IMG/VR virus record: IMGVR_UViG_3300033074_000010
Location: 1-41,294 of that record
From: a virus
Taxonomy: Duplodnaviria; Heunggongvirae; Uroviricota; Caudoviricetes
Length of the DNA stretch: 41,294 nt
Direction: 5' to 3' (one strand)
The notes under the pieces are model-generated. The model saw only the letters and a list, made by a program, of their open reading frames with translations, did not search any database and was not told where the DNA came from. Positions 2,035 to 39,398 of the stretch are shown piece after piece; position 1 is the first letter of the stretch; each line of letters starts with the position of its first letter. The translations under genes were made by a program, and so were the position numbers.

Positions 2035-2128
2035 GTACATCCCGCCCAATACCCTTATATAATCCCTTTAGACGCGTAGGGCGCGTCTGGTGCGCTCTGA
2101 TGGTCAGACGCATATGCAAGGGGATTCT

Positions 2129-2674
2129 ATGAAGCTGAAACTTAAGCAGCCATCGCCAGAGGTGGTGCAAGCTGCACATGAAGAAGCTGTTAGCGCAAAC
2201 CGTCGCCGTAACCGACCGCGCGGTAAACAGAGCCTTTATCAATCATCCCGTAATTCCGCCGCGTTATGGGACCTGGGCTATTGCGACGAATTGATTCGTT
2301 TCTTCGACCGCACGTCATGGGAGCTTGTGCCTACGTCCAAGGGTGACGAACGTCCGCTGATTCAGGATAAACCGCCATCACTGGCCCGCTTCGCCTTACA
2401 CATCGGCGTCACTATACCAATTATTAAGCTGTGGCTGCGCGAGATTCCCGCATTTGCAGAAGCCTATGAAACAGCACAGGCGCTGGAAGAGGCATACTTC
2501 ACCGAGACAGGGGCCGCGGGCATTTCGGCTACGTTTGCTGCTGCGAAACTGGGGCTTAGCAAAGAGAAACCGGTTGAATCCACCGAAGAAACAGCACCGA
2601 CCGAGATTGTTTTCAGTGTTGCAGAGCCTGTAGGTAAAATCGTAACAACTAACATGGGCGAGGTAGAGGAATGA
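2129..2674 (+). CDS. terminase small subunit (putative)
   Basis: ORF directly upstream of and overlapping large terminase (ATGA at 2671); basic N-terminal region; alternative in-frame ATG at 2114. Confidence 0.55.
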   Translation: MKLKLKQPSPEVVQAAHEEAVSANRRRNRPRGKQSLYQSSRNSAALWDLGYCDELIRFFDRTSWELVPTSKGDERPLIQDKPPSLARFALHIGVTIPIIKLWLREIPAFAEAYETAQALEEAYFTETGAAGISATFAAAKLGLSKEKPVESTEETAPTEIVFSVAEPVGKIVTTNMGEVEE

Positions 2675-3921
2675 GTATTCAGCTATCCGCGCCCCAGGCT
2701 CTGTTCCTGAATTGCGATAACAAGTACAAGGCCTACGTCGGTGGCTTCGGCAGCGGTAAGACATTTGTTGGCTGCCTTGACCTGCTTACATTTATGCTCA
2801 AACACCCCGGTACGCGCCTGGGCTACTTCGGCCCCACATACCCCGCTATCCGTGACATCTTCTACCCAACATTCGAGGAAGCGGCTAACCTGCTTGGCCT
2901 CGATGTGCTGGTTAAATCCGGCGACAAAGAAGTTGTGGTTACTCGCGGTAAGACTGTGCTCGGTACGGTTATCTGCCGTTCGATGGATAACCCCGGCTCG
3001 ATAGTCGGTTTCAAAATCGCGGCTGCGGTAGTGGATGAACTGGACGTATTGAGCCGCGAGAAAGCCGAGCTGGCGTGGAACAAAATCGTGGCCCGTATGC
3101 GTCTGGTTATACCGGGTGTAATTAACCACATCTCTGTCACCACAACGCCGGAAGGGTTCAAGTTCGTCTATGCCAAGTTCAAAGAGAATCCGACGCCAAG
3201 TTACTCAATGGTGCAGGCATCAACTCACGAGAATGCGCGGTTCCTGCCACCGGATTACATTAGCTCGCTGACAGAGACTTACCCTGCGCAACTGATTAAC
3301 GCGTATCTGAACGGCGAGTTTGTCAACCTGACCTCCGGCAGCGTGTATTACGCCTATGACCGCCGTAAGCACCGCAGCAAAGAGACAATTCAGCCGGGCG
3401 ACACGCTGTACATCGGTCAGGACTTCAACGTTACGAAGAACGCCAGCGCCGTGTATGTGCAACGTAAAGACGGCTGGCACGCGGTAGCAGAACTGAAAGG
3501 CCTGTTCGATACGCCGGACACCGTTAGAGTGATTACTGAGAAGTGGAAGTCGCAAGGCCACCGCATCGTCGTTTACCCCGACGCAAGCGGCAAGAACCGA
3601 AAAACCAACTCGGCGTCAATCTCTGATATTGCGTTACTCCAGCAGGCTGGTTTCGATGTTCGCGCTAAATCTGCCAACCCCCCGGTTAAAGACCGCGTTT
3701 TAGCCGTGAATACCGCGCTGGAAAAAGGTAAGCTGTGGGTTAATGACCACTTATGCCCTGAGATAGCCAAGACGCTGGAGCAGCAGGCATACGACGATAA
3801 CGGAGAGCCAGCTAAAGATGGCATCATTGACCACATGGCGGATGCCCTCGGCTATCCTGTAGTTTACGAGATGCCGGTGGTTAAACCAGTAATCAACATC
3901 CCGGTGACTTTCGCACTTTAA
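2671..3921 (+). CDS. terL: terminase large subunit
   Basis: Walker A GGFGSGKT near N-terminus; 416 aa; position before portal. Confidence 0.85.
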   Translation: MSIQLSAPQALFLNCDNKYKAYVGGFGSGKTFVGCLDLLTFMLKHPGTRLGYFGPTYPAIRDIFYPTFEEAANLLGLDVLVKSGDKEVVVTRGKTVLGTVICRSMDNPGSIVGFKIAAAVVDELDVLSREKAELAWNKIVARMRLVIPGVINHISVTTTPEGFKFVYAKFKENPTPSYSMVQASTHENARFLPPDYISSLTETYPAQLINAYLNGEFVNLTSGSVYYAYDRRKHRSKETIQPGDTLYIGQDFNVTKNASAVYVQRKDGWHAVAELKGLFDTPDTVRVITEKWKSQGHRIVVYPDASGKNRKTNSASISDIALLQQAGFDVRAKSANPPVKDRVLAVNTALEKGKLWVNDHLCPEIAKTLEQQAYDDNGEPAKDGIIDHMADALGYPVVYEMPVVKPVINIPVTFAL

Positions 3922-3932
3922 GAGGACAACAA

Positions 3933-5426
3933 ATGGTTTCCGCAAACATTAACGCAGGGCAAGGGCAGAACGTTAAAACGCGCCACCGCCAGTACGAAGA
4001 GTATTTCCCTAAGTGGCAGAAGGTGCGACATGCGCTTTCTGGCGACCTGACATCATATTTACGGGATGTGGGTAAGAATGAGCCGGACCCTGTGTATGGT
4101 CGCCAGCGTCAGGCTGAATACGAAGCGGGGGCAATTTGCTACAACTTCACCAAGCGAACGCTTTCCGGCATGGTCGGCAGCGTAATGCGCAAAGACCCAG
4201 AGATGATTATTCCGTCTCAGATGGAATACCTGACCACTAACTGTGACGGGTCGGGCGTTGGCCTGTGGCAGCACGCGCAGGATACCCTGTATGAGATTGA
4301 TGCTGTCGGTCGCGGCGGCTTGCTGGTGGACGCGCCCGCGGTAGAAGTCGCTACTATGGCGGAGCAAAACGAGGGCTTACTAAACCCTACAATTGCTTTC
4401 TACACTGCTGAGAACATCATTAACTGGCGTCTCCAGCGCGTCGGGTCGGTCAATCGTGTGGTTATGGTTGTATTGCGCGAAGAATACGAGTACACCGACG
4501 GAACTGACGAGTTCAGCCCCAACTACGGCGAACAATACCGCGTCCTTGATATTTTCGAAGGCCAGTATCGCCAGCGTCTGTACCGGTTTAACCAGAAAGG
4601 CGCACTGATGGAAGGAGGTTACATCGAAATCTTCCCGAAACTCGGTAACATCCCGGTCGGGGTGATTCCGTTTACGTTCATTGGGGCCGGGAATAATGAC
4701 TCGACCCCTGACGATGCACCTTTGCTGCCTCTGGCTGAACTTAATATCGGGCATTTCCGCAACAGTGCAGACAATGAGGAGTCCAGCTTCGTTGTAGGTC
4801 AACCCACTCTGTTCATTGCGCCGGGCGAGAATATGAGCATGGAGCAGTGGAAAGAAGCCAACCCTCACGGCGTCCGCATGGGGTCGCGTTCGGGCCATAA
4901 CATCGGTTACGGCGGCAATGCGTTTCTGGTTCAGGCGGAGGAGAACAACCTCGCTAAGCAGAACATGCTGGATAAAGAGAATCAGGCCATCCAGATTGGT
5001 GCGCAGCTTATCACCCCGACGCAGCAAATCACCGCTGAATCCGCCCGCCTGCAACGCGGCGCTGACACGTCCGTTATGGCGACAATTGCGCGTAATGTAA
5101 GCTCTGCGTATACCGATGCGCTGAAATGGGTTGCGGGTATGCTAGGATTGCGTGGAGACACAGAGATTGAGTTCAAGCTGAATATGGAGTTCTTCCTGCA
5201 GCCTATGACCGCCCAGGACCGCGCTCAGTGGATGGCGGACATTAACGCGGGCCTGTTACCTGCTACTGCTTACTACGCAGCGTTGCGTAAGGCGGGTGTA
5301 ACCGACTGGACGGATGAGGACCTTCAGAACGCTATCGAGGATGCGCCACTGCCGTTAGGTGCTGTTGCTCAGGTATCGGGGGAGATTCCGCAGTCGGCGC
5401 AGCAACAGGACACCACTCAGCAGTAA
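3933..5426 (+). CDS. portal protein
   Basis: 497-aa ORF immediately after terminase; RBS AAGAGGA; size and position typical of portal. Confidence 0.7.
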   Translation: MVSANINAGQGQNVKTRHRQYEEYFPKWQKVRHALSGDLTSYLRDVGKNEPDPVYGRQRQAEYEAGAICYNFTKRTLSGMVGSVMRKDPEMIIPSQMEYLTTNCDGSGVGLWQHAQDTLYEIDAVGRGGLLVDAPAVEVATMAEQNEGLLNPTIAFYTAENIINWRLQRVGSVNRVVMVVLREEYEYTDGTDEFSPNYGEQYRVLDIFEGQYRQRLYRFNQKGALMEGGYIEIFPKLGNIPVGVIPFTFIGAGNNDSTPDDAPLLPLAELNIGHFRNSADNEESSFVVGQPTLFIAPGENMSMEQWKEANPHGVRMGSRSGHNIGYGGNAFLVQAEENNLAKQNMLDKENQAIQIGAQLITPTQQITAESARLQRGADTSVMATIARNVSSAYTDALKWVAGMLGLRGDTEIEFKLNMEFFLQPMTAQDRAQWMADINAGLLPATAYYAALRKAGVTDWTDEDLQNAIEDAPLPLGAVAQVSGEIPQSAQQQDTTQQ

Positions 5427-5436
5427 GTTCACCTAT

Positions 5437-5457
5437 AGCCCCGAAAGGGGCTTTCTT
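5437..5457 (+). terminator. terminator-like hairpin
   Basis: Stem AGCCCC/GGGGCT with GAAA loop followed by TTCTT. Confidence 0.5.
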
Positions 5458-5462
5458 ATAGT

Positions 5463-6539
5463 ATGCTATTAACTTTAGCGCCACAGGGTTTATCTATGAG
5501 CTTACTTACATCTCTAATCAGCCACCAGATATGGCTGCAACGCACCGCATCCGGTGAAGTGAAAGGCCTCGCACCGTTCATTAAGGAGATGCGGGACGAA
5601 ATAAAACGGCAGGTTCTGTTATTCGGCGACGACGGGCGAAGCTCGCGCCGACTGAATAAATTGTTACGCGACCTTGAAGAAGCGCTAACCGGACTTACAG
5701 GCGACTGGCAAACAAAGCTGACAGAAGACCTTAAGGAACTGGCGGCGTATGAGGCGGAGTGGAACGTAAAGACGCTGACAGCTAACGTAGACGCGGAATT
5801 TGTCACGCCTACCGCGGAACAGGTGTGGGCCGCTGCCGAGTTTCAACCTCTGTCGCTAAGTGACAAGCCCGTTGACTTCACCAAGCTGATGTCAGGCTGG
5901 GGTGAAGCGGAGGTCGCGCGCCTTGTAACTGGCGTTAAGATGGGCTTTGTGCAAGGCCAAACCACACGGCAGATTGTTAAAGAAGTAGTTGGTAAAGGCG
6001 GCCTGGCTGACGTATCAGAGAAACACGCCGCTACAGTAATCCGCACCGCGCTGTCCCACGTGTCCAACGAAGCCCGTAATGAGACATACCGCCAGAACGA
6101 CGACATCATCGAGAAATACGAATGGGTGTCAACGCTGGACAGCCGCACCAGTACGATTTGCAGAGCCAGAGACGGAATGACGTGGGGAATCGGTAAAGGG
6201 CCAATGCCCCCTGCCCATCCGAACTGCCGGTCGTGCACGGCGCCCGTAATTAGCTCGGAGTTCGACTTCCTCGATAAAGGCGCAAAACGTGCGGCTAAGG
6301 GCGCGGACGGAGGTACTCAGGTAAGTGCGGACACCACCTATTACGAGTTCCTGAAACAACAACCGGCATGGTTTCAGGACCAGGCGCTCGGCCCTGTTCG
6401 CGGTAAGATTTTCCGTAACAGCGGTATATCGCCGGAAGAGTTTCGCGTAATATCTGTAGATGGTTTCGGTAATCCGCTGACGCTTAAGCAGATGGCGGAA
6501 CTCGATAAACGTGTTGCTGATTATCTGAAAGGGGATTAA
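5463..6539 (+). CDS. head morphogenesis / minor head protein (putative)
   Basis: 358-aa ORF after portal, gene-order analogy to SPP1 gp7 / Mu F-like; alternative ATG at 5496. Confidence 0.55.
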   Translation: MLLTLAPQGLSMSLLTSLISHQIWLQRTASGEVKGLAPFIKEMRDEIKRQVLLFGDDGRSSRRLNKLLRDLEEALTGLTGDWQTKLTEDLKELAAYEAEWNVKTLTANVDAEFVTPTAEQVWAAAEFQPLSLSDKPVDFTKLMSGWGEAEVARLVTGVKMGFVQGQTTRQIVKEVVGKGGLADVSEKHAATVIRTALSHVSNEARNETYRQNDDIIEKYEWVSTLDSRTSTICRARDGMTWGIGKGPMPPAHPNCRSCTAPVISSEFDFLDKGAKRAAKGADGGTQVSADTTYYEFLKQQPAWFQDQALGPVRGKIFRNSGISPEEFRVISVDGFGNPLTLKQMAELDKRVADYLKGD

Positions 6540-7000
6540 TGATGGGCTTTTTCAAAGTAACTGATGTGCCGTCGCGTCGCGTAGTCCAGTACGCTCGTGT
6601 GTCTGGCTCCGGTGAGAACGTGGTATTTATTGAAGATGAAAGTGTACTGGGTACACCAGTAGACGATATGCCGTTTGCGGACAAGACTGGTATTGCGCTG
6701 CCTGCGGCAGGTATGCTTTACGAGATTCCGTATCTGGCGGACGCTGGCGACGTGTATTTCTCTGCACAACCACAGGACGTCGAACTGGCAGACGGCAGCG
6801 CCACTATCACTGTCGAGGTTAAGGCGGGCAAAGCACCATACGCGCTGACCTGGTACAAAGACGGTAAGGAAGTGGTAAACGCCCCGGAAGAGGCTTTGTC
6901 TCTGACGGTTAATGCGGTGGGTGAATACTTCGTTAAAGTTACTGATGCCGATGGTGTAGAGGCCGTAAGCAAAGCGGCGAAGGTCACTAAGCCAGAATAA
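6539..7000 (+). CDS. hypothetical structural protein with Ig-like C-terminal region
   Basis: 153-aa ORF; C-terminal segment (ATITVEVKAGKAPYALTWYKDGKEV) resembles Ig-like domains. Confidence 0.4.
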   Translation: MMGFFKVTDVPSRRVVQYARVSGSGENVVFIEDESVLGTPVDDMPFADKTGIALPAAGMLYEIPYLADAGDVYFSAQPQDVELADGSATITVEVKAGKAPYALTWYKDGKEVVNAPEEALSLTVNAVGEYFVKVTDADGVEAVSKAAKVTKPE

Positions 7001-7006
7001 ACTGAA

Positions 7007-7025
7007 GCCCCGAAAGGGGCTTTTT
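7007..7025 (+). terminator. rho-independent terminator
   Basis: Stem GCCCC(7007-7011)/GGGGC(7016-7020), GAAA loop, T5 run. Confidence 0.65.
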
Positions 7026-7089
7026 AGCGCCTGTGACTATTCCAGTTATTCCACCGAATTGTAAATGTTAGAATAAACTATTCGAATAG

Positions 7090-7118
7090 TTGACTTTTCA
7101 CCAAAAATGTGCTAAGCT
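7090..7118 (+). promoter_or_regulatory. sigma70-like promoter (extended -10)
   Basis: TTGACT(7090-7095), 17 nt, TGcTAAGCT(7110-7118); 16-bp perfect palindrome AACTATTCGAATAGTT (7076-7091) overlaps the -35. Confidence 0.55.
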
Positions 7119-7121
7119 CCA

Positions 7122-7230
7122 CCTGAGCTTGTGAAGTATGAACAAGCGACCGCGGCACGGCAGGTAACGGAGCCGGACGTTAAGTCCGAGTGTAGTTACG
7201 CTGACGCGTTCGGAAGGGCCATACTCTATT
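7122..7230 (+). ncRNA. candidate structured RNA / cis-regulatory leader, copy A (family unassigned)
   Basis: No ORF of 60 aa or more; 5' 34 nt identical and 3' ~31 nt near-identical to 36852-36963; conserved hairpin GCTTGT-9nt-ACAAGC. Confidence 0.4.
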
Positions 7231-7297
7231 GCTTGTGTAAAAAGTAACTGGTTTACTGAGATTACGCCGTTTCTATGTTTAAATGATAAGGACTAGC

Positions 7298-7324
7298 GCC
7301 CCGCTTTAAGGCGGGGCTTTACTT
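7298..7324 (+). terminator. terminator-like hairpin (weak U tract)
   Basis: Stem GCCCCGC(7298-7304)/GCGGGGC(7311-7317) followed by TTTACTT. Confidence 0.35.
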
Positions 7325-7341
7325 ATCGAGAAAGGGGAAAC

Positions 7342-7728
7342 ATGAATCTTAAAGCAACTGTCGTAGCAGGAGCATGTTTCATCATCCTGTTATATGTACA
7401 CGGCTACTTTCAATACCGCAGCGGCTGGAACGAAGGCCGGGCGAATCTCGTTTCGCAGCAACAGCAGAAAGCACAGGCTGAGTTAGCGAAGAAAACACAA
7501 CGGCAGCAGCAGGATGAATCAAAGGCCGCGGCCGCCGACAGCGAAGGCAAGACGAAATCAGAGGTGATTACCCGTGAAGTCGTTAAGTACATTAAAACAC
7601 CTGGTCGCAGCGTGTGCACTTTCGACGATGCTCGCGTCCTGCTCAAGTCCCGCGCCGTCGCAAACGCCAATTCCATCCCCGGATACGACGATGATGCAGC
7701 CACCGTGCAAGCTGGCACCACCAAGTAG
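7342..7728 (+). CDS. i-spanin (Rz-like), putative
   Basis: N-terminal TM helix then charged coiled-coil-like region; contains embedded +1-frame lipoprotein ORF. Confidence 0.55.
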   Translation: MNLKATVVAGACFIILLYVHGYFQYRSGWNEGRANLVSQQQQKAQAELAKKTQRQQQDESKAAAADSEGKTKSEVITREVVKYIKTPGRSVCTFDDARVLLKSRAVANANSIPGYDDDAATVQAGTTK

Positions 7729-7837
7729 CGATGCTGACGAGGATTTAGCTATCGACGTTCAGAACGCCGAATGCGTACGGCAACTGAGACTGAAAGTGTT
7801 CATGTTGCAGGATTACGTGCGGAATATTCTGGAATAG
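7574..7837 (+). CDS. o-spanin (Rz1-like lipoprotein), putative
   Basis: GTG start after GAGGTGA; lipobox LASC; Pro-rich mature region with MMQPP; overlaps the Rz-like ORF in another frame and extends past it. Confidence 0.55.
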   Translation: MKSLSTLKHLVAACALSTMLASCSSPAPSQTPIPSPDTTMMQPPCKLAPPSSDADEDLAIDVQNAECVRQLRLKVFMLQDYVRNILE

Positions 7838-7916
7838 TTGCCTTGTGTGTTGGAATAATTTATTCTTGACATGTAAATCCGGGAGGCCCGGATTCCAACG
7901 TCCAGGGGACATACTG

Positions 7917-27887: not shown

Positions 27888-28175
27888 TTAACTATAATAG
27901 TGTGCTATTAGGGTGTCAACCTGTTTAAACGAGCCAACGACAAAAACATTTGCACCACGTTTACGCATACGCTCGTGCTCTCGTAACTGGTGCGGGTCTG
28001 GCTTCGTGTTTTCGTCTTTCTTCACCTCGACAAACCAGACTATGCCGCCAGGGAGAATTACCAGCAGGTCTGGAGCGCCGGAGCGCCCCTCGTAGGAAAG
28101 TTTACGAACGAGGCCACCAATGGCCTCGAATCGCTCCTTCGTGTATTTCTGTATTTTGCCCTCAGGCGTACTCAT
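27888..28175 (-). CDS. VRR-NUC domain nuclease (putative)
   Basis: PD-(D/E)XK-like core GAPDLLVILPGGIVWFVEVKK; 95 aa. Confidence 0.65.
   Translation of the reverse strand: MSTPEGKIQKYTKERFEAIGGLVRKLSYEGRSGAPDLLVILPGGIVWFVEVKKDENTKPDPHQLREHERMRKRGANVFVVGSFKQVDTLIAHYYS
27891..27919 (-). promoter_or_regulatory. sigma70-like promoter with conserved box (site 2)
   Basis: Read on - strand: TTGACA (27914-27919), 17 nt, TATAGT (27891-27896); palindrome AATAGTGTGCTATT 27896-27909. Confidence 0.6.
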
Positions 28176-31449: not shown

Positions 31450-31478
31450 ACTATAATAGCTAACTATTCGGGTGTCAA
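31450..31478 (-). promoter_or_regulatory. sigma70-like promoter with conserved box (site 3)
   Basis: Read on - strand: TTGACA (31473-31478), 17 nt, TATAGT (31450-31455); palindrome AATAGCTAACTATT 31455-31468. Confidence 0.6.
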
Positions 31479-33550: not shown

Positions 33551-33579
33551 ACTATAATAGTGAACTATTCACTTGTCAA
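33551..33579 (-). promoter_or_regulatory. sigma70-like promoter with conserved box (site 4)
   Basis: Read on - strand: TTGACA (33574-33579), 17 nt, TATAGT (33551-33556); palindrome AATAGTGAACTATT 33556-33569; divergent from the Cro-like gene. Confidence 0.6.
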
Positions 33580-33643: not shown

Positions 33644-33859
33644 ATGCAACCATCTGAACTAGGCATCCGTGTAGAGCAACGCCGTAAAGAACTCGGCATC
33701 TCCCAGCGCCGTCTGGCTGTCCTGACCGGCGTTTCTCAGGGCGCGATTAACCAACTGGCACTCGGCGTAACTCAGGACGTCCGCCCTGCAACGCTGTTTA
33801 AACTGGCGGAAGTGCTGGAAGTAGACGCCAAGTGGCTGGCGTTAGGTGAAGGGGCTTAA
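33644..33859 (+). CDS. HTH transcriptional regulator, XRE/Cro-like
   Basis: 71 aa; HTH ISQRRLAVLTGVSQGAINQL; strong RBS AAGGAG (33630-33635). Confidence 0.75.
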   Translation: MQPSELGIRVEQRRKELGISQRRLAVLTGVSQGAINQLALGVTQDVRPATLFKLAEVLEVDAKWLALGEGA

Positions 33860-36714: not shown

Positions 36715-36743
36715 TTCACGTTCTCCTATGTAAGATATACCGA

Positions 36744-36772
36744 AGTATAAGGCGGTAACTTTGTAAAAGCAA
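36744..36772 (-). promoter_or_regulatory. sigma70-like promoter for leftward early operon
   Basis: Read on - strand: TTGCTT (36767-36772), 17 nt, TATACT (36744-36749). Confidence 0.5.
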
Positions 36773-36794
36773 CCAAAACACCACACAAAGTTAC
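36755..36794. promoter_or_regulatory. inverted repeat, candidate operator
   Basis: 10-bp arms GTAACTTTGT (36755-36764) and ACAAAGTTAC (36785-36794) separated by 20 bp; left arm overlaps promoter spacer. Confidence 0.45.
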
Positions 36795-36819
36795 TAAAAT
36801 ACAAAAGATGCTACTAGTA

Positions 36820-36848
36820 TTGACTTTTACTGAGAAATATGGTAAGCT
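36820..36848 (+). promoter_or_regulatory. sigma70-like promoter (extended -10)
   Basis: TTGACT (36820-36825), 17 nt, TGgTAAGCT (36840-36848); same hexamers as promoter at 7090-7118. Confidence 0.55.
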
Positions 36849-36851
36849 CGT

Positions 36852-36963
36852 CCTGAGCTTGTGAAGTATGAACAAGCGACCGCGGTGCGCGGCAGGCGAA
36901 ACGAGCACGTCTCGACGTGTGGAGTGAGCCTCGCTGACGCATTCGGAAGGGCCATAGTCTATT
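36852..36963 (+). ncRNA. candidate structured RNA / cis-regulatory leader, copy B (family unassigned)
   Basis: Paralogue of 7122-7230; no ORF of 60 aa or more on + strand; identical 5' 34 nt and near-identical 3' block. Confidence 0.4.
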
Positions 36964-37118
36964 ATAATTCCCCGCCTAAATATCTAAGTTATTGATTTGC
37001 CGTAGGTCAGAACCGCAAGCTCACTCACTCACTCTTGGTGCCTTCGGCACCACGTTCGTTTCGTTTCGCTCGCTACCCCATTAAACAAAAGAATCACAAC
37101 GGCAACGTAACTAATCTC

Positions 37119-37147
37119 TTGCACACCCCAATATAATAGGGTACTAT
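37119..37147 (+). promoter_or_regulatory. promoter with conserved box (site 6)
   Basis: TTGCAC (37119-37124), 17 nt, TACTAT (37142-37147); box ATATAATAGGGTACTATTCAC; leader AAACGAGACAGAGGAG precedes ATG. Confidence 0.5.
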
Positions 37148-37373: not shown

Positions 37374-37576
37374 TGGAAGAATTATTTGAAGAACTGAAAC
37401 ATCATGATTTCGAGGAAATATATTTCGTAGCTGAACGCTACGAGGTGCATTTATCGGACGGGATTACAATTATTACGATGGATAGCCAGCAAATGCTAAA
37501 TAGCTTACAGGCAATCAAAACGGCATCGAATCGTGATGCTTGTGCCGACGACTCTGAGGGAGGTTGCCGTGAATAA
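37373..37576 (+). CDS. hypothetical acidic protein (67 aa)
   Basis: ATG overlapping upstream stop; track ORF 37370..37576. Confidence 0.45.
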   Translation: MEELFEELKHHDFEEIYFVAERYEVHLSDGITIITMDSQQMLNSLQAIKTASNRDACADDSEGGCRE

Positions 37577-37636
37577 TTACCTGTTTATTTTAATAGTCAG
37601 CGCCGTTTATGTGGTGCACGCGTTGTGGGGGTTGAT

Positions 37637-37831
37637 ATGAGTCCTTATAACCGGTTTCGTCTGGAGCGTCTACGTCGCGGATTAAGTAACGCTAAATTAG
37701 CTCTCGATATATGGGAGAGTACGCCATATTCTTCCTCGAAGGCATGGTTTGTAGCCCGTGCTAAAGCGTCCGTACAGTATCGCGAGTACAAGTTAAACAG
37801 TTTCCTTAAACACCACGGGGTAGAGCTATGA
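37637..37831 (+). CDS. hypothetical protein (64 aa)
   Basis: ATG 37637 after GGGGG; track ORF 37625..37831. Confidence 0.45.
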   Translation: MSPYNRFRLERLRRGLSNAKLALDIWESTPYSSSKAWFVARAKASVQYREYKLNSFLKHHGVEL

Positions 37832-37977: not shown

Positions 37978-38000
37978 TTTAAGATTTTACTGAGTGACTT

Positions 38001-38114: not shown

Positions 38115-38143
38115 TTGCACACTAAGATAGAATAGGCTACTAT
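38115..38143 (+). promoter_or_regulatory. promoter with conserved box (site 7)
   Basis: TTGCAC (38115-38120), 17 nt, TACTAT (38138-38143); box AGAATAGGCTACTATTCAT; leader AAACGAGAGGAGAGA precedes ATG. Confidence 0.5.
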
Positions 38144-38712: not shown

Positions 38713-38912
38713 CCAGCATCCTATTTATATGGGTATTGTCTGCGGGCCAGATGCAACTCGCGGCATCAGAAACGTTTTACTCGATGGAGGCGTGCCAGTC
38801 AGCGGCACGCGCCGCAGAGAACGCGCACTTCCTGTTTCAGGGTGACAAGCCCAACGATTCAGAGGTACGCGCTATCTGCTCACCTAAGCGACTTGGTAAA
38901 CAGGAGAGATAA
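38709..38912 (+). CDS. hypothetical secreted or membrane-anchored protein (67 aa)
   Basis: ATG 38709 in ATGA overlap; N-terminal hydrophobic signal-like segment MTSILFIWVLSAGQMQLAA. Confidence 0.45.
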   Translation: MTSILFIWVLSAGQMQLAASETFYSMEACQSAARAAENAHFLFQGDKPNDSEVRAICSPKRLGKQER

Positions 38913-38913
38913 C

Positions 38914-39195
38914 ATGGTACAGAGATATGAGCTTAAAGATGTTAGTGAATACCCCTACGACCCGTATAACGACCTGGTGGAGAGTGACGAAGGTGTTTGG
39001 GTTAGCTACGAAGACTACAAGGAACTGGACAACAGATTCCAGGACTACGTAGTTACAACAGAGATGGAAGTAGCGGAACTTGTGGCAAGACTGGCAGAAG
39101 TAAATGCCGAGTTACAGAAATACAAAGACCAGTTTCCGGATTACGTCGAGTGCGCGAACTGTGGGTCAGTTACACATGTGGAAGGGGTGGAGTGA
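38914..39195 (+). CDS. hypothetical protein (93 aa), paralogue of next gene
   Basis: ATG 38914 after CAGGAGAG; N-terminus MVQRY and YEDYKEL motif shared with downstream ORF. Confidence 0.5.
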   Translation: MVQRYELKDVSEYPYDPYNDLVESDEGVWVSYEDYKELDNRFQDYVVTTEMEVAELVARLAEVNAELQKYKDQFPDYVECANCGSVTHVEGVE

Positions 39196-39398
39196 TGGTG
39201 CAGAGATATGTTGCGTCTTATAACGACTATTATACCCATGAAGACGGGGAATTTGTTACTTACGAAGACTACGTGGAACTCGAGACCGCCGTTATCGCAC
39301 TACTCGTGGATATAAACCGACGCTATCCTGGGGAAGGGTTTAAGTGCCCGTTAATACTTAAACTCGCGGAGATTGTGGAACATGAGCCTCGCAACTGA
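39195..39398 (+). CDS. hypothetical protein (67 aa), paralogue of previous gene
   Basis: ATG 39195 overlapping upstream stop; begins MVQRY, contains YEDYVEL. Confidence 0.5.
   Translation: MVQRYVASYNDYYTHEDGEFVTYEDYVELETAVIALLVDINRRYPGEGFKCPLILKLAEIVEHEPRN

Follow-up and report, generated by a model that had tools for sequence, protein, structure and literature searches.

The window, by which we mean the whole stretch of DNA analysed (41,294 nucleotides), is essentially the whole, near-complete genome of a Kagunavirus (Guernseyvirinae; K1G-like siphophages of E. coli), as judged by BLAST, and its gene map was taken from the annotated relatives Shashou (Kagunavirus) and SETP3 (Jerseyvirus). 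Two plus-strand promoters, PA and PB, are each followed by a copy of the same leader element. The unit downstream of copy A contains the genes for the spanins, the scaffold, the capsid, and the head-tail and tail-tube proteins, and the genes at the end of the copy-B operon are those for the holin, antiholin, and endolysin. The two units jointly hold a split lysis cassette (spanins in the former, holin and endolysin in the latter) plus the late structural genes. In lambda, the set of lysis and late structural genes is placed under antitermination. The features at the two loci are as follows.

7005-7022: terminator ending the terminase-portal-head unit, before PA
7090-7118, plus strand: promoter PA, with -35 TTGACT, 17-nt spacer, and extended -10 TGcTAAGCT
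7122-7230, plus strand: leader RNA element, copy A, 109 nt (covariance model)
7127-7147, plus strand: P1 hairpin, GCUUGU, 9-nt loop, ACAAGC (MFE folds of single representatives)
7150-7213, plus strand: long hairpin P2 (folds and covariation count)
7214-7232, plus strand: single-stranded 3' tail AAGGGCCAUACUCUAUUGC (RAGG-SCC...CUAUUG; unpaired in folds, conserved across types)
7233-7297, plus strand: remaining A leader, which contains a small hairpin (AGUAAC-UGG-UUUACU) and two conserved blocks, AGAUUACGCCGU and AUGUUUA (alignment)
7298-7327, plus strand: tA, GC-rich hairpin GCCCCGC-UUUAA-GCGGGGC (7298-7317), then UUUACUUAUC (terminator score)
9538-9562, plus strand: canonical terminator GGGGC-UUCG-GCCCC-UUUUUAC (hairpin 9538-9557), after the major capsid gene
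36820-36848, plus strand: promoter PB, TTGACT-17-TGgTAAGCT
36852-36963, plus strand: leader RNA element, copy B, 112 nt (P1 36857-36877, P2 36880-36946, tail from 36947)
37036-37052, plus strand: stable hairpin GGUGCC-UUCG-GGCACC with the tail CGUUCGUUUCG, about 70 nt past the B element
37119-37147, plus strand: further promoter, TTGCAC-17-TACTAT, with the palindromic operator AATAGGGTACTATT overlapping it

Sequence comparison within the window placed the two same-strand copies at 7122-7230 and 36852-36963, as in a preliminary description of this DNA. The repeat also has the make-up given there: the first 34 nt (from 7122 and 36852) are identical, the 32-nt 3' blocks (7199-7230 and 36932-36963) differ at two positions, and the middle of about 45 nt is diverged, with a similar overall length in the two copies (109 and 112 nt). 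The similarity starts upstream of the element, since the 66-nt block 7090-7155 is repeated at 36820-36885, where the promoter part is 86% alike. A covariance model of the element had only two matches in the window, copy A (110 bits, E = 3e-20) and copy B (97 bits, E = 1e-17).

At both sites, the element starts about 3 nt past the -10 of a promoter of the form TTGACTTTT-N-TGnTAAGCT. The consensus TTGACTTTT-N6-AAATNTGNTAAGCT occurs at only two sites in the window, which are PA and PB, and 0.00 sites are expected from shuffled sequences. The TTGACT-17-TAAGCT promoter noted earlier is thus present at both copies, with the correction that TAAGCT is used with an extended TG. TAAGCT matches TATAAT at only three of the six positions; a generic promoter scan misses PA and PB because their -10 is a poor hexamer rescued by the extended TG. 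Jerseyvirus keeps the architecture of PA as TAGACT-17-TGtTACGCT. Transcription from PA would start at about 7124-7126. The palindromes GAATAAACTATTC and CTATTCGAATAG (7066-7089) abut the -35 of PA, and Jerseyvirus keeps GAATACTTTATTC in the equivalent place; they may be a regulator site specific to PA.

As read from the sequence, the leader is about 220 nt long after PA and about 320 nt after PB, and all other strong promoters in the window lie 25-45 nt from their gene. In the A leader, the approximately 65 nt between the element and tA (7233-7297) are nearly invariant in Kagunavirus, and some blocks are common to Jerseyvirus. Since near-invariance extends over the full 220-nt A leader, well beyond the element alone, the functional unit may be larger than the element or different from it. 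The mini-ORF AUG UUU AAA UGA (AUGUUUAAAUGA) at 7275-7286 ends beside the tA hairpin, and its Jerseyvirus counterpart has 8 codons (L054, about 1011-1037); the mini-ORF has no Shine-Dalgarno sequence, and its AUG is lost in one variant. The terminator score of tA (d = +14) is like those of operon-end terminators, and its stem has the compensatory variants GCCCAGC/GCUGGGC and GCCCUGC/GCAGGGC. The i-spanin start codon is at 7342, 24 nt past tA. The ribosome-binding site of the next gene directly follows the terminator at 9538-9562. We found no promoter in the window sequence between PA and the tail-tube gene, which leaves PA as the only promoter for 7342-13209; because no promoter lies between, PA transcripts must pass both tA and the post-capsid terminator.

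PB stands back-to-back with a leftward promoter. The hairpin at 37036-37052 has no U tract and a terminator score of d = -40, and it is not terminator-like. In other Kagunaviruses, a second version of the B leader has the hairpin GGGUGGGC-UAAC-GCCCACCC, likewise with no U tract, and the equivalent hairpins in the B leader of Jerseyvirus and the A leader of Cornellvirus also fail to score as terminators. The promoter at 37119-37147 lies about 60 nt past the B hairpin, and another of the same type is found at 38115-38143 (plus strand), after the terminator at 38000; the type recurs at 15479-15451 (minus strand). Because the promoters at 37119-37147 and 38115-38143 can serve them, the B genes are not strictly dependent on PB. 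The earlier view that both units must cross several intrinsic terminators therefore holds for copy A (tA and 9538-9557), but not for copy B, with its hairpin without a U tract and its own downstream promoters.

Some further observations concern these promoters and leaders. The 14-bp palindrome AATAGnnnnCTATT occurs in two promoter families, TTGACA-4-AATAGnnnnCTATT-ATAGT and TTGCRC-17-TACTAT, at 27896-27919, 31455-31478, and 33556-33579 (minus strand), at 37119-37147 and 38115-38143 (plus strand), and at 15451-15479 (minus strand). It is probably the operator of the Cro-like helix-turn-helix (HTH) protein encoded at 33644-33859. PA and PB do not contain it. The B leader of Jerseyvirus SETP3 (37529-37716) has other hairpins and then the tail-like GGGCGAGCUAUAUU, and the A leader of Cornellvirus VSiP (L194, 800-969) has other hairpins and then the tail-like GGGGAUAGUCUAUU; these two leaders may be functional analogues of the element. 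The Jerseyvirus B promoter also carries TGTAAGTT.

When seven representatives were folded one by one, each gave the same P1, P2, and single-stranded AAGGGCC... tail, and the MFE fold of copy B is this consensus architecture. P1 has 6 bp and begins 2-3 nt from the predicted 5' end. It is the GCTTGT-9nt-ACAAGC pairing that had been proposed for the 5' block, and it is present in the MFE folds of the representatives. In Jerseyvirus, four of its six pairs are fully exchanged (ACGCU-UUC-AGCGU), and a U-A pair is changed to U-G in variants.

P2 is an irregular hairpin of about 65-75 nt. Its base is near-invariant: CCG(C)GGNGCG pairs with CGCN'UUCGG (at the foot, ACCGCGG with UUCGG), one C is bulged, and two of the pairs are fixed as G-U. 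At the N-N' position, C-G, U-A, and A-U were all seen. Above the base follow an internal loop and about 8 more pairs with a one-nucleotide bulge (in copy A, CAG/CUG and an inner 5-bp stem). The loop flanked by G-A is GGA/GUA, GAA/GUA, or GA/GA across the variants, with GGA/GUA in copy A. The upper part begins with a 2-bp helix (GC/GU in copy A), continues with a conserved RA bulge, and ends in a tip hairpin of variable sequence, whose helix has five different sequences, every one of which pairs. The hairpin first noticed in the middle of copy A is the P2 tip, CGGAC-GUUAA-GUCCG. In the case of copy B, the CGAG-CACGT-CTCG hairpin proposed at first is replaced in the folds by CACGU-CUCG-ACGUG; we rejected CGAG/CUCG because the Shashou sequence, CACG-UGUAG-CGUG, keeps the CACGU/ACGUG pairing and destroys the other.

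The tail is unpaired in the folds of the representatives, in which the folded sequences were cut at GGGCC. It is conserved across the types, with the variants AAGGCCC and GAGGCCC, and the B leader of Jerseyvirus and the A leader of Cornellvirus, which are not homologous to it, have a similar motif. Unlike the P2 base and the tail, which are conserved, the tip varies freely. A pseudoknot between the P1 loop and the tail (AGUAUG/CAUACU), seen in the copy-A MFE fold, is not kept in copy B, the D type, or Jerseyvirus and was rejected.

In a hand-made structural alignment of 28 distinct variants, which was fitted to the structure and is thus biased towards it, and which represents only about 5-6 independent lineages, 98.8% of 819 cells pair, and 15 of the 32 pairs are changed on both sides. 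The covariation score was 0.447 versus 0.143 in shuffles, none of 500 of which reached 0.447. When the 3' partners were slid by 1-3 columns, pairing fell to 30-45%. RNAalifold on a sequence-only MAFFT alignment recovered only the P2 base, with the same covarying pair. Compensatory changes among homologues thus bear out the suggestion that the structure is conserved with covariation. The plus strand is the functional one, since the G-U pairs would become A-C on the other strand. Both copies are real structured RNAs on the plus strand, located at promoters and confined to the PA and PB units.

A small protein gene is hardly credible as an alternative. Plus-strand ORFs of 38 and 44 codons span the two copies; a frame of 36-44 codons ending in '...AFGRAILYC' is open in most variants and in Jerseyvirus and is annotated as a hypothetical protein in Shashou and further GenBank records. 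However, the D type (at least 12 loci) does not keep the frame intact, nor do L015, L026, and L145, and the start and N-terminal frame of copy A in the window differ from those of the common variant. Among the 17 distinct substitutions, 15 are non-synonymous and two synonymous, with 9, 6, and 2 at the first, second, and third codon positions, the reverse of coding constraint. Whole helix sequences are swapped with pairing kept, which also argues against coding, the ORF lacks a Shine-Dalgarno sequence, and at 58% G+C an open frame as long as this one is nothing unusual. The frames of the homologues thus show no protein-coding constraint, in line with the RNA-like element described earlier. That neither copy is covered by an ORF of at least 60 amino acids is correct, except that the first 57 nt of copy B lie within a minus-strand ORF of 60 amino acids (36726-36908). 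The 'hypothetical protein' coding sequences drawn over the A and B elements in many records (in Shashou, 5621-5731 and 37530-37637; one of these coding sequences is on the wrong strand) are probably spurious.

In 183 phage records, the promoter and element together have an identity of at least 92%. The flanking genes are less conserved than the element: for the Salmonella ER phages, identity is 94% over the element versus 85% across the surrounding 1.1 kb. Searching viral and metagenome collections by pattern gave the A, B, C, D, and Shashou types in Kagunavirus and a divergent type in Jerseyvirus, whose copy is in the equivalent place, between the Hoc-like gene and the spanins. With the covariance model, we found two copies per Kagunavirus genome and one in Jerseyvirus SETP3 (A site only); the model found no element in the Jerseyvirus B leader or in VSiP, the one Cornellvirus examined. 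Because the C-type core is present at A and B sites alike, the A and B copies exchange sequence. A second pattern match inside some Jerseyvirus genomes (L056, L058, L068) was discarded after the model gave no match in L056 and L058, the two searched, and so were the sequences L096 and L097, which have no model match.

Among one genome each from 100,044 bacterial and archaeal species, the element was found only on two small contigs of phage contamination. The search for distant homologues in viral sequences gave only Kagunavirus- and Jerseyvirus-type contexts plus chance GC-rich matches, and the metagenome pattern scan gave only Kagunavirus types plus chance GC-rich matches. From these scans, the element appears to be private to Guernseyvirinae, without a host counterpart.

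The earlier statement that the element belongs to no recognised RNA family agrees with a scan of the whole window against Rfam 15, which had no match at the gathering score; at permissive E-values there were only chance-level matches, none of them over the element core. ARAGORN predicted no tRNA or tmRNA gene in the window. A tRNA-Ser is annotated in two Jerseyvirus records (L053, 762-840; L193, 482-559; minus strand) over the terminator upstream of PA, which is probably a false positive, because ARAGORN gives none in the window. Several known motifs and roles were considered and rejected: an RfaH ops-like GGCAGGUAACGG is not conserved in B or Jerseyvirus types, GGA motifs of the CsrA type are not conserved in Jerseyvirus, and a tRNA-like CCA end is not conserved. 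An origin or other DNA-level role was rejected as well, since GC skew merely tracks gene orientation and the G-U pairs argue for RNA. We found no description of the element in Rfam or the searchable literature; the supplementary data of a catalogue that lists over 10,000 candidate structured RNAs from viruses (PMC10690425) lay outside this search, so an anonymous prior listing is possible. Judged from the comparative sequence evidence, the element is a well-supported new structured RNA family.

The preliminary description had compared the arrangement with the put RNAs of phage HK022. Two paralogous copies do lie just past the promoters of rightward units, but the comparison does not extend to homology with putL or putR. 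With the covariance model, no score above 4.5 bits (E = 1.7) was obtained in the PL-nun region of HK022, which contains putL, and Smith-Waterman scores of putL and putR against copies A and B and the Jerseyvirus copy were no better than those of shuffles; homology was therefore rejected.

Our best explanation, held tentatively and at less than even confidence, is that the element is a put-like cis-acting leader RNA that modifies the transcribing polymerase. The first approximately 110 nt of transcripts from the two special sigma-70 promoters PA and PB would form the leader, which would fold co-transcriptionally into two adjacent local hairpins. The near-invariant P2 base and the purine-rich tail would then engage the RNA polymerase that has just made them, and elongation would become resistant to pausing and termination. 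Transcripts from PA could pass tA and the post-capsid terminator, so that the spanins, scaffold, capsid, and head-tail/tail-tube proteins would be expressed, and transcripts from PB could pass the terminator at 38000 and reach the holin and endolysin genes. Polymerase binding and antitermination are here proposed by analogy. Action on the nascent RNA suits the element because both helices are local and begin 2-3 nt from the predicted 5' end. The conservation of the base and tail, with a varying tip and the C tip at both sites, suggests a generic partner rather than site-specific pairing targets. The reading also draws on the fact that only the two units with long leaders carry the element, on the terminators of the A unit, and on the lack of a recognisable antiterminator protein among the 10 phage proteins tested (see below). 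Several observations speak against antitermination. The operon at 2090-7000, with a terminator inside it at 5437, carries no such leader. On the B side, the hairpins are not terminator-like, and the genes have promoters of their own downstream of the element. The Jerseyvirus B leader and the examined Cornellvirus are without the element.

HK022 put shares several properties with the element. Its genome likewise has a pair of paralogous copies, each in the leader of a different operon (Jerseyvirus has only one copy of the element), and putL starts at the 5' end of the transcript and has two stem-loops with non-canonical pairs (PMC9378689). Both RNAs are made of a pair of neighbouring stem-loops that contain bulges and non-canonical G-A and G-U pairs, in different proportions, and both phages use the host RNA polymerase with no known antiterminator protein (PMC9378689). 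Terminators lie downstream of put and, in the window, of copy A, whereas the hairpin after copy B is not terminator-like and the B genes have their own promoters. In contrast, put is about 70-74 nt long, and the element is about 110 nt, with one short hairpin, one very long hairpin, and a conserved tail. Moreover, put belongs to the early PL and PR units of temperate lambdoid phages, unlike the element, which is found in lysis and late units of virulent Guernseyvirinae. The factor-independent action of put through the beta' zinc-binding domain would apply to the element by analogy only.

EAR and natural RNA polymerase aptamers are other nascent leader RNAs that act on the elongation complex. 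The conAn leader of pLS20 is an example of a nascent leader RNA altering the elongation complex over a long operon (PMC8191782). These RNAs differ from the element in that they work in other hosts and have unrelated structures, and conAn needs a protein partner.

A protein partner is central to a different reading, in which the element would be a nut-like site that recruits a phage-encoded RNA-binding antiterminator, with or without Nus factors; transcription would stop or be attenuated early and read through later, delaying the lysis and capsid genes in the style of lambda N or Q. We consider this unlikely. Lambda PR'-qut-tR' has the 194-nt '6S' leader, a terminator, and then lysis and morphogenesis genes, and the A unit parallels this order with its strong promoter, leader of about 200 nt, terminator-like hairpin, and lysis and late genes. 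The existence of tA is better accounted for than by a constitutive antiterminator, which would leave tA pointless. As with lambda and P22 nut, a promoter-proximal RNA signal made of a hairpin and a linear conserved motif occurs in two operons, and the near-invariant base and tail resemble a protein recognition site. The B operon has many small ORFs of unknown function, including a 68-amino-acid plus-strand ORF at 37625-37831 with an Arg-rich N-terminus (SPYNRFRLERLRRG) and no family match, which would be a candidate RNA-binding partner if the element needs one. However, the 10 proteins tested against Pfam and PHROGs (nine B-operon ORFs and the Cro-like HTH protein) gave no antiterminator family, with neither an N-like protein nor a match to a Q-family model. 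Conserved boxA (CGCUCUUA) is missing from the leader alignments, in which the sole similar run is CACUCUU in one B-leader version, with none in the A leaders or the other B version, and P1 and P2 are unlike the 15-nt boxB. Q uses a DNA site and a sigma-dependent pause, whereas the conservation of the element follows RNA pairing, and the -10-like AAGUAT in the initial transcribed region (in the P1 loop), as a Q-type pause would need, is lost in the D and Jerseyvirus types.

The terminator-like hairpin bears on a further reading, a riboswitch-like sensor or leader-peptide attenuator controlling tA, which we regard as very improbable. Aptamers typically combine covarying helices with conserved nucleotides in junctions and internal loops, copy A is followed by a terminator-like hairpin, and the mini-ORFs of the Kagunavirus and Jerseyvirus A leaders end near the hairpin. 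On the other hand, about 70 nt separate the tA hairpin from the element, we saw no conserved alternative pairing of the element with a hairpin arm (the GCGGGGC that it needs is not in the window copy), the B hairpins are not terminators, and the element has no Rfam match; as for attenuation, it would have to work with mini-ORFs that lack a Shine-Dalgarno sequence and, in one variant, the AUG.

The functional product could also be a small RNA on its own, which would work in trans by binding a host or phage factor or by serving as a decoy for one. It would be either a domain of about 100 nt cleaved at the conserved AU-rich CUAUU tail or a transcript of about 195 nt from PA to tA. This is quite unlikely in our judgement. 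The fold is compact and stable, tA scores as a terminator, the tail motif, as expected of a processing site, recurs in two leaders that are otherwise unrelated (Jerseyvirus B and Cornellvirus A), and the B element is upstream of an independent gene promoter, so that PB, the element, and the hairpin could be a separate unit. Against this, the A leader must also be part of an mRNA, because no promoter lies between tA and the spanin gene; the B hairpins have no U tracts, and hence no defined 3' end is predicted there; and the 100,044 bacterial and archaeal species genomes contain no homologue to suggest mimicry of a host RNA.

Protection of the mRNA from 5'-end-dependent decay, or control of the processing or translation of the first genes, is improbable as the role of the leader. 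It would fit with P1 beginning so close to the predicted 5' end and with the stable hairpin just before the first ribosome-binding site, which the A leaders of Kagunavirus, Jerseyvirus, and Cornellvirus all have, including those in which the hairpin is not terminator-like. However, a simple 5' hairpin suffices for this purpose, which leaves the 75-nt P2, its near-invariant base, the fixed G-U pairs, and the G-A loop unexplained, and the element is more than 100 nt from the ribosome-binding site.

If the put-like function that we prefer holds, the element would be a new variant of the put kind. HK022 put and its close relatives are almost the sole phage RNAs known to make the host RNA polymerase terminator-resistant unaided. 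A broader proposal, possible but rather doubtful at present, is that the element represents a second, evolutionarily independent class of polymerase-reprogramming leader RNA, put-like in function, unrelated in structure, and protein-free, which couples the split lysis genes and the capsid genes of virulent Guernseyvirinae to terminator-resistant transcription. If so, RNA-only terminator resistance would have evolved more than once, and a new RNA-polymerase interface would be available for study. Phages of both genera, Kagunavirus and Jerseyvirus, are widely isolated for therapeutic and food-safety use, and some GenBank records label the RNA as a hypothetical protein. Even with another function, the structured RNA family would stand, with its invariant nucleotides clear.

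Two other observations were made in the window. A stand-alone plus-strand unit at 75-175, conserved in 445 phage records, consists of a promoter (TTGACA-17-GATACT), an unstructured CU-rich stretch of about 35 nt, and a strong terminator at 143-170 with 8 U. The CU-rich stretch starts with CACCUCCU, which is like the 3' end of 16S rRNA (UCACCUCCUGUUCCAUCCCUCUGCUCUCCAG), and is complementary to phage ribosome-binding sites of the GAGAGGAGAG type. In addition, a 45-nt direct repeat with 73% identity (38985-39029 and 39239-39283) lies inside the adjacent small genes 38842-39195 and 39150-39398, which look like tandem paralogues.
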